Part shown: positions 26,582 through 34,447 of the stretch, piece by piece
How positions within the stretch are numbered: the first letter of the stretch is position 1
Layout: each line of letters starts with the position of its first letter
NCBI GenBank assembly: GCA_963820825.1
Contig: CAWGBN010000007.1
Coordinates: forward strand, 96,001-160,000
Source of the DNA: Vulcanimicrobiota bacterium
GTDB taxonomy: Bacteria > Vulcanimicrobiota > Vulcanimicrobiia > Vulcanimicrobiales > Vulcanimicrobiaceae
Length of the DNA stretch: 64,000 bases
Reading direction: 5' to 3'
The notes under the pieces: model-generated
What the model was told of the DNA's origin: nothing
Databases searched by the model: none
What the model saw: only the letters and a program-made list of their open reading frames with translations
Position numbers and translations under genes: made by a program

Positions 26582-27102
26582 GGAAGAGTCTCCACCGTGA
26601 TGTCGTTGTTGGTATAGATGCAGATTTCCGAGGCGATCTCCAGCCCTTTGCGCGCGATCTCGGCGGCATCGAGCGGCGTGTTTCGAAGCATCGCCGCCGC
26701 GGCCGCCTGCGCGTAAGCGCCGCCGCTGCCGATGGCGGCGATCCCCTCGTCGGGCTCGATCACGTCGCCGGTGCCCGAGAGCAGAAAAAGATGCTCGCCG
26801 TTGCCGACGATCATCAGCGCCTCCAGCCGGCGCAGGACGCGGTCCTGCCGCCAATCCTTTGCCAGCTCGACGGCCGCGCGCCGGAGATCTTTGAACTCGC
26901 CGAACTTCGCCTCAAACTTCTCCAGCAGCGTGATGCCGTCGGCCGCGGAGCCGGCGAAGCCGGCGATCACCTTACCGCCGCAGACCCTGCGTACCTTACG
27001 CGCACTGTGCTTTACGATCGTTTTGTCGAGCGTGACTTGCCCGTCGCCCGCAATCGCGAGCCGTCCATCGCGGCGCACGGCCAGAATCGTCGTTGACTTC
27101 AT
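26578..27102 (-). CDS. hslV: ATP-dependent protease peptidase subunit HslV (ClpQ)
   Basis: [28 protein letters not shown] and ICIYTN motifs. Confidence 0.97.
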
Positions 27103-27103
27103 G

Positions 27104-28429
27104 CTAGCGTGAGTACCCGGCAGGCGCGAAGAGGGTTTCAGCGGCAAAGGCATCGATGGCGGCGAGCGCGCGCTCGGCCAGCACCCGCCGCCGCTCCCGC
27201 TTCCCGGCGACCGCCACCGCCGGAAAGGAGCCCCAGGTGACGTTCGACGGCTGAAAATCGGGCGTTTCGCGGTTCTGCAAGTGCGCGATCACGGCGCCGA
27301 ACGCGCTCTCGCGCGGAAATTCGACCGGCGGCGCTCCGAGGATCGCACGTGCCGCATGAATGCCCGCCATCGCTCCGCAGGCCGCCGCTTCGACGTAGCC
27401 CTCGGCACCGGTGATCTGTCCCGCGAAGTAGAGCGCTTCGGTACCGCGTAGCCGCAGACTCGGCTCGAGCAGTCGCGGCGCGTCGATGAACGTATTGCGA
27501 TGCATCACGCCGAGACGAAGCCACTCGGCATCGTGCAATCCGGGGAGTCTGCCGAAGGCTTCGCGCTGCGCCGGCCAGCTCAGCCGCGTCTGAAAACCGA
27601 CGAGATTGTAGGCCGTTCCCTCGCGATTCTCTTTGCGCAGCTGCACCACCGCATAGGGCGTCTCCCCCGTTCGCGGATCGCGCAGGCCGACGGGTTTGAG
27701 CGGACCGAAGCGCAAGACGTCGTCGCCGCGATCGGCCATCTCCTCGATCGGTAGACATCCCTCGAAGTAGCGCGTCTCCTCGAAATCCTTTGCCGGATGG
27801 CGCTCGAGGGTGCGCAGATCGGTGAGCAGACGCTCGTATTCGCCGCGGTCGAGCGGGATGTTGAGGTAGTCGTCGCCATCTCCCTTATCGTAGCGGGATT
27901 TCCGGTACATCGGCGCTTCGTCGATCGAATCGGCGGCGACGATCGGTGACGCGGCGTCGTAATAATGCAGGCGAGCGCCGGCGATGCGATCGAGGCTCGC
28001 CAGAAAGTCCTCGCCCGGGAGCGGACCGCACGCGACGATCGCGGGACGGTCGAGCGGAATTGCACGCACTTCCTCGCGGTGGAGGGTAATGCGCGGTTCG
28101 TCTGCGATTCGCGCTTCGATCAGTTCCGCAAAGCGCTGCCGGTCGACCGCGAGCGCTCCGCCCGCCGGCACGGCCGTCTCGCGCGCCGAGCTGACGATCA
28201 GCGAGCCGAGCCGCGCGAGCTCCTCTTTGAGCAGTCCGACGGCGTTCTCGAGCGCGGCGCCGCGAAGCGAGTTGCTGCAGACGAGCTCGGCGAGCGCTCC
28301 CGTCTTATGCGCGGGTCCGCTGCGAAGCGGCCGCATCTCGTAGAGATCGACCTCGGCGCCGCAACGCGCGGCCTGCCACGCCGCTTCGCATCCGGCCAAC
28401 CCACCCCCAATGACCGTGAGGCGAAGCAT
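27104..28429 (-). CDS. trmFO: Folate/FAD-dependent tRNA m5U54 methyltransferase
   Basis: [35 protein letters not shown] and [10 protein letters not shown] motifs. Confidence 0.97.
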
Positions 28430-28442
28430 TGTGACGAAGGAT

Positions 28443-30552
28443 TCAGGAGCTGGCAGCCGCGGGCGTGAGCGCGGTGACGTCGTGACTCCGGTCCGCCGCG
28501 CACTGCAGCGTGACGTTGCCGCCGCGCCGCGTCTTAGCCAGAACGTGCGAGCCGCAGGCGGGACAGCGCTCCGGAACGACGGCATCCCACGAGATGAAAT
28601 CGCACTTCGGATAGTTCGCGCATCCGTAAAAGGTGCGGCCCTTCTTGGAACGGCGCTCGACGATCGCGCCGCCGCAGCGCGGGCACGCGGCTCCCGTCTC
28701 CTTCACGATCGGTTTCGTCGTCTTGCACTCCGGATAGCCGCTGCACGAGATGAACTTCCCGAAGCGGCCGTGCTTGATGACCATCGGGCGGCCGCAGGTC
28801 GGGCAGATCTCGTCGGTCGGCTCGTCGCGCAGCTCCAAGCGCGGCAGCTTCTTCTCGGCAGCCTCGAGCTCGCTCTCGAAGGGGCCGTAGAAACTGCGCA
28901 GCAGCGCGATCCAATCTTCGTTCCCCTCGGCGACCCGGTCGAGATCGCCTTCCATCCGGGCGGTGAAGTCGAGGTTGACGATCTTCGGGAAGTGCTCGAC
29001 GAGCAGATCGTTGACCGCGAAGCCGATCGGAGTCGGCATGAAGCGCCGCTCTTGCTGCGTCACGTAGCCGCGCGCCTGGATGGTCTCGACGATCGTCGAG
29101 TACGTCGACGGTCGGCCGATGCCGTTATCTTCAAGCGCTTTGACGAGCGCCGCTTCGGTGAAACGCGGCGGCGGCTCGGTGAAGTGCTGCTTCGGCTCGA
29201 CCCTCCGGCACTCGAGCGCCTCGCCTTCGTTTAATTCCGGCAGGCGTACGCGGCCCTTGGCGCCGTCGTCTTCCTTCGACTCGTCGTAGACGCGGGTGAA
29301 GCCTGGGAATTTCATGACGGTTCCCGTTGCGCGGAACGTGTAATCGGCCGCGGCAACGTCGACGACCGTCTGGTCGAAGAGCGCCGCCGACATCTGCGAG
29401 GCGACGAAACGCTCCCAAATCATGGAGTAGAGGCGCAGCTCCTCGCGCTTGAGGATTCCGGCGAGGCGTTCCGGCGTTCGGTGCACCGAGGTAGGGCGAA
29501 TCGCTTCGTGCGCGTCCTGCGCGCCCTCCCGAACGCGATGAATCTTGCCCCCGTGGAACTGCTCGCCGTACGTCGCGACGATGAACTCGCGAGCCGCGTC
29601 GCGCGCCTGATCGCTGATGCGCGTCGAGTCCGTACGCATATAGGTGATCAGGCCGACGGTCCCCTCGCTTCCGCCCAGATCGACGCCCTCGTACAGCGCC
29701 TGCGACACCTGCATCGCGCGCCGGACGCGCATCTTCAGTTTGCGCGAGGCCTCCTGCTGTAACGTCGAGGTCGTGAACGGGGCCGGCGGATTGCGACGCA
29801 CCTCGCGGCGCCTTACCGATCCGACCCGGTAGGCGGCGCCCTCCAGCGCGCGTAGAATCGCGTCGGCCTCGGCCGCATTTCGAATTTCGAGCTTCTCGCC
29901 GCGATGGGCGACGAGATCGGCCGAGAACTCGATCGGCGCGCCCGCCGCGCTCTCGGTCGCCGCAAGCAGGGCTGCGATGCGTCCAGTACTCTCTCGGGAC
30001 GAAGGCCTCGATCTCACGCTCGCGGTCGACGATCAGTTTTACCGCGACCGATTGAACGCGCCCGGCGGAGAGGCCGCCGCGGACCTTCGACCAGAGCAGC
30101 GGCGAAATCTTGTAGCCGACGAGGCGGTCGAGAATGCGCCGCGCCTGCTGCGCGTTCACGCGATCCATGTCGATGACGTGCGGGTGCTTTAGCGCCGCTA
30201 ACGCCGCTTCTTTGGTGATCTCGTGGAGCTCGATTCGCTGCGGGTCGCGGCAGCTTCAGCAGCTCGGCCAGGTGCCACGCGATCGCCTCGCCTTCGCGGT
30301 CGGGGTCGGTCGCGAGGTAGACGTCGGTCGCGCTCTTCGACGGCGCTCGCGCAGCTCTTTGATGACGTCGCCCTTACCCTTGATCGTCAGGTATTTCGGC
30401 GCGAAATCGTGCTCGACGTCGACGCCGAGCGTGCTCTTGGGAAGATCGCGCACGTGCCCCACCGATGCTTTCACCGCGTAGCGCGCCGGCAAGAACTTCT
30501 TGATCGTCCGCGCCTTGGTCGGCGACTCGACGATGATCAGGGGCTTTTTCAC
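28443..30552 (-). CDS. topA: DNA topoisomerase I, broken by several frameshifts (probable sequencing errors)
   Basis: Fragments IVESPTKA / [17 protein letters not shown] / [32 protein letters not shown] and C-terminal Zn ribbons lie in different frames, switching between ~29980 and ~30350. Confidence 0.95.
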
Positions 30553-30565
30553 GGGGCCTAGTATA
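30553..30565 (-). promoter_or_regulatory. -10 box TATACT 7 nt upstream of the topA GTG (leaderless-type promoter)
   Basis: Minus strand TATACT-AGGCCCC-GTG; no Shine-Dalgarno. Confidence 0.6.
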
Positions 30566-30629
30566 CTCCGCGGTCAAGACCGGGCTCGAATAGCGCGCGC
30601 GGCCAAACGCTGTTGCGAGGGCGCGCGTT

Positions 30630-30659
30630 CGCGCACGCGCGTGCACGTATGCGCGCGCG
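30630..30659. other. 30-bp uninterrupted alternating pyrimidine/purine tract (Z-DNA-prone)
   Basis: CGCGCACGCGCGTGCACGTATGCGCGCGCG between two divergent promoters. Confidence 0.7.
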
Positions 30660-30662
30660 AAT

Positions 30663-30691
30663 TTGCATCATTTGACGAAATCCTCTATGAT
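30663..30691 (+). promoter_or_regulatory. Sigma70-type promoter for the histone-like gene
   Basis: TTGCAT-N17-TATGAT. Confidence 0.65.
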
Positions 30692-30760
30692 GCGCTCAAA
30701 AGCGCGCAATGAGCGCTGTCCAATAAACGCTTATCGTCCCCGGGGGACGAGGAGGAATGA

Positions 30761-31162
30761 ATGGACTCCGATTCCACGATGAACGGCGGCCCGGTCGAAG
30801 AGGTAAAGAAGCTTCGCAAACGGGCCGCTAAAAAAGCCGTCGCCGCTGCGGTCGTTCGCAAGGCAGTTGCGTAAGCGGCGAGTTCGCAAGGCCGTCCGTC
30901 GCAAGGTCGCCGCACGGTCGTGCGCAAGGCAGTCGGCGTAAGAGTCGCCCGCAAGGCCGTGCGCCGGAAAGTCGCCCGCAAGGTCGTGCGCACGAAGGTA
31001 GTCCGCAAGGCCGTGCGCCGGAAAGTCGCCCGCAAGGCGGTGGCCGTAAGGTAGCGCGCAAGGCCGTGCGCCGGAAAGTCGTCCGCAAAGCGGTGCGCAA
31101 GAAAGGTAGCCCGCAAGGCCGGCAAAAGGGCGGCGCAAGAAGAGGTAACCGCCGAAAGATGA
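30761..31162 (+). CDS. Lys/Arg/Val/Ala-rich histone H1-like (Hc2/HctB-type) repeat protein, frameshifted in this sequence
   Basis: GGAGGA RBS then [36 protein letters not shown]..; repeats reading RKAVRRKVA across frames; absent from the ORF track on this strand. 3' end approximate. Confidence 0.75.
30950..31088 (+). repeat. Coding tandem repeat, ~54-bp period
   Basis: CGCAAGGCCGTGCGCCGGAAAGTCG starts at 30950, 31004 and 31057. Confidence 0.9.
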
Positions 31163-31179
31163 ACGCTAAGCTGTACGCA

Positions 31180-31223
31180 ATTGAAGGCGGGCGGCCACAC
31201 GCAGTGACTGCCCGCCTTTCAAT
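31180..31223. terminator. Hairpin between the convergent histone-like gene and ABC ATPase
   Basis: ATTGAAGGCGGGCGGCCAC ... GTGACTGCCCGCCTTTCAAT imperfect inverted repeat. Confidence 0.65.
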
Positions 31224-31224
31224 G

Positions 31225-32244
31225 TCATGAACTGACGCGAGCCGCCGGCGCTTGGCCGCCGTGCTCTTCCACCCAGTGGCACGCGGCGATAGTGGCCCGG
31301 CGCGTACTCCTCGCAGCGGCGGCTCTTCGACGATGCAGCGATCGAACGCGATCGGGCAGCGCGTGTGAAAGCGGCAGCCCGACGGCGGATTGACCGGCGA
31401 CGGAATGTCGCCGGTCAGGACGATGCGCTTGCGCCGGCGCTCGACGCGCCGGATCGGGAATCGGAATGGCCGAGAGCAGCGCCTGCGTGTACGGGTGGAG
31501 CGGGTTCGCGATAGAGCTCGTTGCGGTCGGCGAGCTCGACGAGCTTGCCGACGTACATCACGGCGACGCGGGTCGAGATGTGCCGCACGACCGAAAGATC
31601 GTGCGCGATGAAGAGATAGGTGAGCCCGAACTGCTCCTGCAGATCCTCGAGCAGGTTGATGACCTGCGCCTGAATCGAGACGTCGAGCGCCGAGACCGGC
31701 TCGTCGCAGACGATGAACTTCGGGCTCGACCGCGAGCGCCCGCGCGATGCCGACGCGCTGGCGCTGACCGCCGGAAAACTCGTGCGGGATAGCGGTTGGC
31801 GTGATAGGGCTGCAAGGCCGACGAGCTAGAGCAGCTCCTGGACGCGCTCGTCCATCGCCTTTCCCGTGGCGAGCCGGTGAATTCGCAGCGGCTCGGCGAC
31901 GATGTCGCCGACGGTCATCCGCGGATTGAGCGACGCGAACGGGTCCTGGAAGATGATCTGCATCGATCGGCGCAGCCGGCGAATCTCGGTGCGGTTCAGT
32001 CGCCAGCACGTTTCGATTCTCGAAGAACATCTCGCCTTTGGTCGCCGGGCAGCAGGCGCAGCAGAAGCCGCCCGATCGTCGTCTTGCCCGAGCCCGACTC
32101 GCCGACGAGCCCGAGCGTTTCGCCCGCTGCGATGGTGAAGTTGACGCCGTCGACGGCCCTCACGTCGGCGACGTGGCGCGACATCAGTCCGGCGTGAATC
32201 GGAAAATACTTGTAAGAGATCCGTCGACTCGAACGAGCGCGCCG

Positions 32245-32248
<4 letters not shown>
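31225..32248 (-). CDS. Oligopeptide/dipeptide ABC transporter ATP-binding protein (OppF/DppF-like), multiply frameshifted
   Basis: [39 protein letters not shown] and [19 protein letters not shown] in different frames. Confidence 0.88.
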
Positions 32249-33286
<1,038 letters not shown>

Positions 33287-33303
33287 GCTCGTTCCTAGTT
33301 CGC

Positions 33304-33706
33304 CTAGATGCCGGTCAGCGAGAGAATAAATCCGAAGACGACGAAACAGACCGCGACGATGCCGGTCCAGCGTTTGAGCTGCTCTTCGGCACCGAGGCGA
33401 CCGCGATAGGCCGACTCGACGCGACCGCCGATCGATCCGGTGAGCCCTTCCTGTTTCGTCGTTTGAATCGCGAGCAAGAAGATCAGCAGGATCGCCGCGA
33501 TGATGAAGAGTCCGGCGAAGCCGTGCGTCAGCCACGGCAGGTGCGTCGCGAACCACGTTTTCGGTTCAGGCCCGGCCGGCGGAATCGACGGGCGCAGTCG
33601 GGCCTGCGGGAAGACTCGACGGGAGCGCGCCCTGCGGCAAAGCCGTTGCCACGGCCGTTGGTACGGCCTTGGCTGCCGCCGCGGCAGCCGATAGAAGGGG
33701 GTGCAT
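33304..33706 (-). CDS. secG: Preprotein translocase subunit SecG, with probable N-terminal Ala/Pro-rich extension joined across a frameshift
   Basis: [29 protein letters not shown] SecG pattern; RBS-preceded ATG at 33706 is in another frame. Confidence 0.8.
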
Positions 33707-34447
33707 TGCGGCATCCTCTCTACGACTGCGAGCTCCGCTCCGCCTGCACGAGGGCGGTGCGACGGGTGCGACCAAACTAGCACGGGTGCCCGAGTCGAGC
33801 TGGACGGAGGATCCGCTTCGGCAATCGTTCCTATCAAGAAACGCGGGGTCTGGCGCGAGCTCGCGCGCATCCTCTCGACGATCTTCAATCCGTTTCTCAC
33901 CGCCTTCGCGCTCTTCGTCATCCTCGCGCACATCGGCGCGAAGGACACGCTCGACTTTTGGCTGCTGCTCTTCATCTCGACCTTCTTCGTCTCGATCGGA
34001 CCGATGCTCTACGTCTTCTGGCTGTACGCAACCGATCGAATCTCCGATCTCGACATGTCGGTGCGAGCCGAGCGCGAGATGGTCTTCACCGCCTTCGTCG
34101 TCTTCGACGCGCTCGGCGCCGGAACGCTCTGGCTCGTGCACGCGCCGCGATTGATGATCGCCGCGATGCTCGGCTATCTCGCCTCGACGCTCATCGTGCA
34201 ATACATCACCCGCTACTGGAAGATCAGCACGCACGCGATCGGCATCACGGCGCCGCTGGCTGCGCTTACCTTGCTCTACGGGCGTCAGCCGCTTCCGTTC
34301 ATGGTCCTGGTCCCGATGGTCTGCTGGGCGCGCGTCTATCTCAAGGCGCACACGGTCGCCCAGGTTCTCGCCGGCATCGGGCTCGCGATTGCAACGACGG
34401 CGTTCTTCTTCTCCCTCTTTCACGTGGGATTACTCTCGGCTCATTGA
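33701..34447 (+). CDS. PAP2-superfamily membrane protein
   Basis: Multi-TM; KISTH and WARVYLKAHT..QVLAG motifs; true start probably nearer 33790. Confidence 0.75.
   Translation: MHCGILSTTASSAPPARGRCDGCDQTSTGARVELDGGSASAIVPIKKRGVWRELARILSTIFNPFLTAFALFVILAHIGAKDTLDFWLLLFISTFFVSIGPMLYVFWLYATDRISDLDMSVRAEREMVFTAFVVFDALGAGTLWLVHAPRLMIAAMLGYLASTLIVQYITRYWKISTHAIGITAPLAALTLLYGRQPLPFMVLVPMVCWARVYLKAHTVAQVLAGIGLAIATTAFFFSLFHVGLLSAH

Follow-up and report, generated by a model that had tools for sequence, protein, structure and literature searches.

A native regulatory role of Z-DNA in bacteria has been an open question since the 1980s. Rahmouni and Wells reportedly found in 1989 that (CG)n tracts engineered into Escherichia coli plasmids, just ahead of the tet promoter on its upstream side, adopt Z-DNA in vivo, and Yang, Kim, Molinari and DasSarma are said to have described in 1996 an alternating purine-pyrimidine box of about 11 bp in the bop promoter of Halobacterium. 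Among genes that govern DNA topology, Menzel and Gellert are credited with recognizing, in 1983, the homeostatic supercoiling control of gyrase and topoisomerase promoters, and topA is induced by negative supercoiling. To our knowledge, no topoisomerase gene is known to be paired with a divergent nucleoid-protein gene. In eukaryotes, promoter 'flipons' are described (PMC10474125) as Z-prone repeats that are enriched at promoters and have been proposed to capture torsional energy and reset promoter conformation. Here, we analyze a 64,000-nucleotide stretch of a Vulcanimicrobiota bacterium (assembly GCA_963820825.1, contig CAWGBN010000007.1, positions 96,001-160,000; hereafter the window), in which a 30-bp tract of strictly alternating pyrimidines and purines lies between the divergent promoters of topA, encoding topoisomerase I, and of a gene for a polybasic repeat protein. 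Searches on bacterial Z-DNA at promoters and on this phylum returned no account of a bacterial topA or nucleoid-protein promoter that carries an alternating tract conserved between species.

We propose that the tract is a Z-prone element, probably selected, which flips once a torsion threshold is passed and thereby alters the promoter of the polybasic gene and, via shared torsion, topA; we put the probability of this reading at roughly 45%. Throughout this family of uncultured soil bacteria, a long alternating tract persists at a single defined site, adjoining a strong promoter and facing the gene whose enzyme product takes away negative supercoils, with substitutions that preserve its shape and not its letters. 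At about 150 bp and with natural length variants of 0-61 bp, the locus offers a small natural test case for the B-Z flip as a torsion threshold.

A rare alternating tract between two putative promoters

On the plus strand, positions 30630-30659 read CGCGCACGCGCGTGCACGTATGCGCGCGCG. Direct reading confirmed the perfect alternation that the original prediction had claimed, with pyrimidines and purines alternating at 30 of 30 positions and the pattern interrupted at T30629 and A30660. Ten CG, four CA/TG and one TA step make up this strandless feature, defined by direct reading and comparison, which is CG-rich, Z-DNA-prone and uninterrupted over more than the approximately 12 bp rich in CG and CA/TG that we looked for in a flipon-type element. 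Two shorter alternating runs, likewise read directly and without a strand, lie on its topA side, namely GCGCGCGCG (9 bp, 30593-30601) and GCGCGCGT (8 bp, 30621-30628). Both had been predicted and both are present, the first starting at 30593 on re-reading. The GCGCGCGT run shares the phase of the main tract, and 30621-30659 form a stretch of 39 bp with a single off-pattern base, T30629.

The tract ends at 30659 and is followed by AAT and then by TTGCAT (30663-30668, plus strand), the putative -35 element of the polybasic gene, leaving a gap of 3 bp. Together with TATGAT (30686-30691, plus strand), the putative -10 element at a spacing of 17 nt, this hexamer was identified by direct reading and by a promoter scan; AATTTGCAT is conserved through the genus, and the -10 reads TATGAT or TATAGT in relatives. 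TTGCAT-N17-TATGAT is the sole promoter-like site that a simple scan returned in 30400-31300 (one found, 0.1 expected), and the tract occupies about -38 to -67 relative to this promoter. On its other side, the tract starts 65 bp from the -10 element of topA, filling part of the approximately 146-bp gap between the divergent promoters. The coordinates and both spacings given in the original prediction, 3 bp to the -35 and about 65 bp to the topA -10, were correct on direct reading.

Within its own genome (2,978,335 bases in nine contigs, 64% G+C, 85% completeness), the tract is the longest alternating run, the runners-up measuring 23, 21 (three times) and 20 bp, and the counts of alternating runs roughly halve with each extra base. 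The objection that tracts of at least 30 bp might be common in this genome can thus be dismissed, as there is one such run and the next has 23 bp. A first-order Markov model built on the genome's own dinucleotides expects 0.05 alternating 30-nt windows, compared with one observed; under the same model, alternating 17-nt windows are under-represented (71 observed versus 154 expected). This shortage of shorter runs agrees with the general suppression of purine-pyrimidine (RY) patterns in prokaryotes that PMC4060949 reports, and because of that suppression a long conserved alternating tract is unexpected. Taken from this genome alone, the rarity is only modestly significant, and the comparison across genomes is decisive.

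A coding map based on G+C at third codon positions (GC3) was dropped as evidence, as it covers only 69% of the frameshift-ridden assembly; by this map, 7 of 14 runs of at least 18 bp lay outside open reading frames (ORFs) against a baseline of 28%, giving no clear enrichment. Inspected by eye, 14 places of other long alternating runs are G+C-rich and look coding, perhaps except C2:340083.

The frameshifts raise the question of an assembly artefact. In the window, topA, the polybasic gene and a gene for an oligopeptide-type ABC ATPase (approximately 31300-32250) are each split across frames and are intact in relatives, and the topA breaks are most likely assembly indels because the relatives have single open frames. 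The assembly is probably an unpolished long-read metagenome-assembled genome (MAG) with frequent indel errors, and single-base spacings in the window are provisional. If the tract itself were a product of such errors, frameshifted neighbors would be expected, and no public sequencing run contains the stretch (best share 0.17), so that reads provide no confirmation; contigs of four runs match just the conserved parts found in relatives, leave 30588-30635 uncovered and give no verdict on the tract or its transcription. Indel errors would, however, break rather than create perfect alternation, and equivalent tracts occur at the same place in independent assemblies of dozens of relatives, making an artefact barely conceivable.

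Alternation in orthologous spacers

For the comparison across genomes, we used the regions upstream of topA from 110 loci, which gave 99 distinct spacers. The relatives are MAGs of Candidatus Eremiobacterota/Vulcanimicrobiota (Candidatus Cybelea, Baltobacteraceae) from soil and peat; genomes G036, G149, G182, G061 and G091 enter the tallies only, and L136 (from G149) is a non-topA locus. Across the spacers, there is hardly any change in the topA -10, in the AATTTGCAT...TATGAT/TATAGT promoter, in the leader or at the beginning of the divergent gene. The DNA between these elements varies in both sequence and length (56-168 bp).

Alternating runs of at least 17 bp occur in 27 of the 99 spacers, measuring 61, 59, 58, 51, 46, 40, 30 (the window's own tract), 28 and 26 bp and then 17-22 bp, which removes the concern that relatives might lack alternation at this place. 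The 13,703 spacer bases hold 28 such runs, compared with one in the 410,557 bases outside the spacer at the same loci, a density about 800-fold higher. In these 28 orthologous tracts, CG accounts for 66% of the pyrimidine-purine (YR) steps, versus 33% expected from the composition of the surrounding spacer, and G+C reaches 76%, versus 57% in the remainder of the same spacers. Alternation is thus kept between species while the letters vary, as looked for in a flipon-type element.

An unbiased scan found alternating 25-nt windows in 60 of 151 family genomes; in its follow-up, one place per genome was fetched, and further spacer tracts may therefore be missed. Among the 30 loci listed first, seven lie at the topA spacer, including all five CG-type runs of at least 30 bp (39, 46, 30, 30 and 30 bp). 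Of the other 23, 22 carry runs of 25-27 bp only and the remaining one is a TA/TG microsatellite cluster. Seven of the ten window-richest genomes have their longest run (43-61 bp) in the topA spacer, where it abuts the promoter; in the other three it is (CGCGTG)n where a contig ends, an ATGCAT repeat rich in A+T, and a run of 33 bp at another locus. The microsatellite cluster (L129, G183:C16:138314-141338), present in one family member, comprises long TA and TG dinucleotide runs (25-61 bp), resembles none of the other loci and could be a contaminant contig or an unusual region.

The position of the tracts is fixed relative to one promoter. A recognized promoter accompanies 22 runs of at least 17 bp, 16 of which stop 0-4 bp short of the polybasic gene's -35, and three more (L017, L018 and L051) are two-part tracts whose second run, of 16 bp, ends 3 bp from the TTGCA hexamer. 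The distance to the topA -10, in turn, varies with spacer length. Since the tract keeps its place at the polybasic gene's -35 while its distance to topA floats, we assign it to the promoter of the polybasic gene and not to that of topA, which corrects the earlier reading; a tie of the tract to the topA promoter was not borne out.

A fixed place just upstream of a -35 is also where class I activators and UP elements act, and the tract might accordingly be a binding array in B-form, at which an activator or repressor, the alpha subunit of RNA polymerase or the polybasic protein itself would dock with no Z-DNA involved. Short palindromes within the tract, such as the 12-bp GCACGCGCGTGC, would suit such a site. 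The relatives, however, share no conserved word, with sequence and length (12-61 bp) differing among species; GCACGCGCGTGC has only four occurrences genome-wide, which give no hint of a regulon, two of them lying in G+C-rich, apparently coding DNA; and the ORFs of 27000-34000 include no adjacent regulator gene. We therefore regard B-form docking as improbable.

Substitutions show what is kept in place of a word. No part of the spacer diverges more than the tract region, yet the changes there are mostly transitions, and alternation persists despite the turnover of letters because transitions preserve the pyrimidine/purine pattern. We compared 16 sister-type pairs, chosen by hand from the tree, and counted as tract columns those within a run of at least 12 bp in either member. 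Tract columns contained 71 transitions, 26 transversions and 44 gap columns, compared with 87, 98 and 165 in the other spacer (Fisher p = 3e-5), with the caveat that MAFFT is prone to bring a pair of alternating sequences into phase. Among the 12 closest pairs, the ratio of transitions to transversions was 49:8 in the tract versus 53:60 elsewhere in the spacer. Per column, relative to the neighboring spacer, transitions were raised and transversions lowered about threefold. A baseline from third codon positions of topA was left unused, as the ungapped comparison put several pairs out of register. Judged on this comparative record, the tract is probably maintained by selection as a lineage-conserved alternating element, akin to a bacterial flipon.

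Spacers with runs below 12 bp (L003, L006, L012, L015, L022, L040, L050 and L063) often carry GTCATCCTGAGCG...GAAGGA-like segments. These look like a small dispersed repeat, of miniature inverted-repeat transposable element (MITE) or repetitive extragenic palindrome (REP) type, inserted between both promoters. Tract-less spacers usually retain YGYG just before AATTTGCAT. In the sister family (L023-L029), the leader of the polybasic gene is about 260 nt long and starts after a conserved GACTTCAAAAAAAGAGGTAAATTGCAC box, and CG-alternating runs of 9-20 bp still lie between this box and topA.

Energetics and a possible torsional switch

We estimated the propensity of the tract to form Z-DNA with a single-run statistical model of the B-Z transition, taking the dinucleotide and junction energies from Table 1 of PMC3024258. 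The modeled cost of the transition is 14.7 + 10 kcal/mol, with about 6.2 turns removed. Half-transition is predicted at a superhelical density (sigma) of -0.035 in a 5-kb domain and of -0.0325 in a 10-kb domain, with the tract as the main predicted Z site across its 5-10 kb surroundings. The modeled transition hence falls within physiological negative superhelicity, as would befit a flipon-type element. A search for the Z-alpha domain (PF02295) returned no match in the window's own genome and was uninformative, as the control genomes were silent too.

The same torsion could in principle extrude a cruciform, and an imperfect inverted repeat within the tract, rather than Z-DNA, would then be the active structure. 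In single-stranded form, the tract yields a fold of -21 kcal/mol, with 10 bp in its stem and 4 nt in its loop; this fold is, however, no better than composition predicts (z = -1.83, with 9 of 200 shuffles equal), and the relatives conserve alternation and not dyad symmetry, which leaves a cruciform very improbable.

For the proposed switch, we envisage that divergent transcription, together with gyrase and global supercoiling, would concentrate negative torsion in the gap of about 146 bp; the gene orientation and the conserved promoter-like hexamers fit such a zone of transcription-driven negative supercoiling. Near a local sigma of -0.033 to -0.035, the tract would flip to the left-handed form, absorbing about six turns, relaxing the promoter gap and setting a B-Z junction 3 bp from the -35. 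The junction would abruptly change both the promoter geometry and the local torsion of the polybasic gene, and the element would act as a threshold switch or limiter on this gene and, through shared torsion, on topA. The scheme presumes both promoters firing as drawn, Z-DNA forming in the cell and a regulatory effect of a certain direction and size, all of which we infer. A homeostat coupling TopA with a DNA-condensing protein, as originally predicted, would be an attractive extension that we consider quite unlikely. Rather unlikely, too, is the broad claim that the locus is a working natural Z-DNA switch setting both a nucleoid-condensing protein and topoisomerase I and, at the same time, one case of a wider rule, by which selected alternating torsion sensors sit at topology-gene promoters in unrelated prokaryotes and phages.

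Several observations weigh against the proposed switch. Runs are shorter than 12 bp in about half of the 99 spacers and a repeat-element insert replaces the tract in several; judged from these spacers, the tract is dispensable. On a TopA tree (95 rows, FastTree), in which the row of the window's own genome, 17% filled and on a long branch, is unplaced, long tracts are scattered among short ones, and fresh hexamer duplications in L056 and L057 represent slippage-type dynamics. CpG-type mutation bias or in-phase alignment could account for part of the transition excess. As for the energetics, the onset |sigma_c| is 0.0308 for the tract versus 0.0309-0.035 for more than 20 shorter CG runs of the same genome; in a 5-kb domain, some shorter CG runs flip earlier than the tract, and runs of 16-20 bp have a near-equal threshold. 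The absorbed six or so turns correspond to the supercoils left by transcribing about 65 bp, which is small relative to the transcription flux, and the element would therefore be a threshold switch or a brief buffer and not a sink. The model, moreover, ignores melting, cruciforms and proteins and does not take the organism's supercoiling level as an input, and the exact length of the tract is provisional.

The tract stands out through its length, which sets how much twist is absorbed, and through its position and conservation, and not through its threshold. Compared with the genome background, as the original prediction had suggested, it shows a modeled transition at plausible sigma and a threshold that is no outlier among more than 20 CG runs. 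Of the supercoiling-sensing switch or homeostat first predicted, there remains a real, rare and conserved tract with a plausible transition, set against its anchoring to the -35 of the polybasic gene, its apparent dispensability and its unexceptional threshold.

The most serious alternative that these points bring up is a neutral simple-sequence hotspot, in which the conserved CGCG beside the -35 seeds slippage and the tract grows, shrinks and decays without function. Repeated gains and losses along the tree, with tract lengths of 0-61 bp in closely related bacteria, would follow naturally, as would the tandem hexamer duplications in L056 and L057, the YGYG usually kept before AATTTGCAT even in tract-less spacers, the tolerated loss of the tract or its replacement by a repeat-element insert, and the unexceptional onset threshold. 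Yet no other locus is alike (one run of at least 17 bp in 410.6 kb of flanks versus 28 in 13.7 kb of spacers), and the longest CG-type runs of whole genomes are located at the topA spacer. Tandem Repeats Finder (TRF) detected no tandem array at 30630-30659, such as the tandem copies of a contingency locus (a phase-variable microsatellite), and the window's own tract, a mixture of CG, CA, TG and TA steps, is not a tandem repeat. Finally, many substitutions have accumulated, yet transversions are depleted about threefold per column versus the neighboring spacer. Overall, we consider a neutral hotspot unlikely but a real possibility. The proposed torsional element is dynamic and seemingly dispensable, which is more in keeping with a tuning device, or with a by-product that is tolerated, than with an essential site.

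The flanking genes and described systems

The topA gene occupies 28443-30552 on the minus strand, in three frames of the assembly (ORFs 30256-30552, 29131-30168 and 28443-30017), with a GTG start at 30552; in relatives, it is a single open frame of about 700-920 amino acids. Its putative -10, TATACT (30560-30565, minus strand, direct reading), lies 7 nt upstream of the GTG in a leaderless layout, and TATA(C/G)T occurs 6-7 nt from the start codon in 64 of the 99 distinct spacers. TTGnnn is found 17-18 nt upstream of the topA -10 in 77 of 95 spacers; in the window's own genome, the promoter scan of 30400-31300 recognized no topA -35. topA looks leaderless in its own clade, and sister clades have leaders of 24-67 nt. 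The spacer comparison further revealed a conserved TTGAC between the -10 and -35 positions (30573-30577, minus strand; GTCAA on the plus strand), present at most 16 nt upstream of the -10, and 6-8 nt from it, in 93 of the 95 spacers having a -10, which may be an operator or an unusual promoter element. The discriminator of the topA promoter, AGGCCCC, is G/C-rich; promoters in which the discriminator is G/C-rich respond positively to negative supercoiling in other bacteria, according to PMC8422995.

On the opposite side, the pairing of topA with the divergent polybasic gene is conserved far beyond the tract-bearing clade. The gene begins with a conserved 5' leader of 69 nt (30692-30760, plus strand), which an alignment of 30 leaders resolved into two hairpins followed by AGGAGG at 30750-30755. 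The first hairpin pairs 30702-30705 with 30713-30716 (GCGC...GCGC) and the second pairs 30735-30739 with 30745-30749 (CGUCC...GGACG), directly before AGGAGG; of ten predicted pairs, five show compensatory changes among the 30 relatives. Rfam offered no family for the leader in 30400-31300, with one chance-level match (COG2908 RNA, 15.2 bits versus a cut-off of 58.7). The hairpins may form an mRNA-stabilizing or autoregulatory element.

The coding sequence (30761-31230, plus strand, from ORFs and relatives) starts with ATG at 30761 and is frameshifted; a first ORF of 37 codons stops at 30874, the gene then passes into other frames, and its true 3' end is uncertain. Intact proteins in relatives have 112-154 amino acids, 43-50% K+R and 2-4% D+E, with a conserved MDSDS N-terminus followed by nine-residue repeats. 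At the DNA level, these are 27-nt tandem repeats, present in 7.4 copies at 30923-31121 and varying in number among relatives. The profiles of the chlamydial histone-like protein Hc2 remained below their cut-offs (PF07382, 13.7 versus 40 bits, E = 0.066; NF038052, 11.8 versus 135 bits), and a homologue search with the polybasic protein yielded three matches among 8000 scored candidates, the low complexity defeating the search. Of the divergent topA and histone-like promoters in the original prediction, the two conserved promoter-like elements stood; 'histone-like' is a reasonable guess from composition, set against a PF07382 score of 13.7 versus 40. Soil metatranscriptome contigs (X15-X17) match 30726-30794 and 30943-30996 at 85-99% likeness, which suggests that relatives transcribe the polybasic gene in soil; these contigs cannot show starts or levels.

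Set beside the described systems, the locus has several partial counterparts. The polybasic protein resembles chlamydial Hc2 (PF07382, NF038052) in being a short Lys/Arg/Ala-rich repeat protein, a likeness that is compositional; unlike Hc2, it has the MDSDS N-terminus and its own nine-residue repeats, and its profile scores lie far below the cut-offs. With the homeostatic topA and gyrase promoters, the locus shares a topoisomerase gene with a G/C-rich discriminator and, by analogy, a promoter that is probably supercoiling-responsive. In contrast to this locus with its adjacent Z-prone tract, the known topA and gyrase mechanisms act by promoter melting.

The closest parallels concern the tract itself. 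Like the (CG)n inserts at tet, it is an alternating CG-type sequence just upstream of a promoter, with a length in the range that flips in vivo; unlike these synthetic probes, it is natural, chromosomal and conserved in a family, mixes CG, TG and TA steps and lies between divergent promoters including that of topA. The bop box is likewise a natural, promoter-proximal alternating tract of a prokaryote, linked to supercoiling-stimulated transcription and non-B DNA, but it is archaeal and short, occupies another place within its promoter and is not at a topoisomerase gene. Eukaryotic flipons differ from the tract in acting in chromatin with Z-alpha readers. By analogy, then, the physics and placement of the tract would match those of the (CG)n tet inserts and the bop box, and its concept would resemble that of the eukaryotic flipons.

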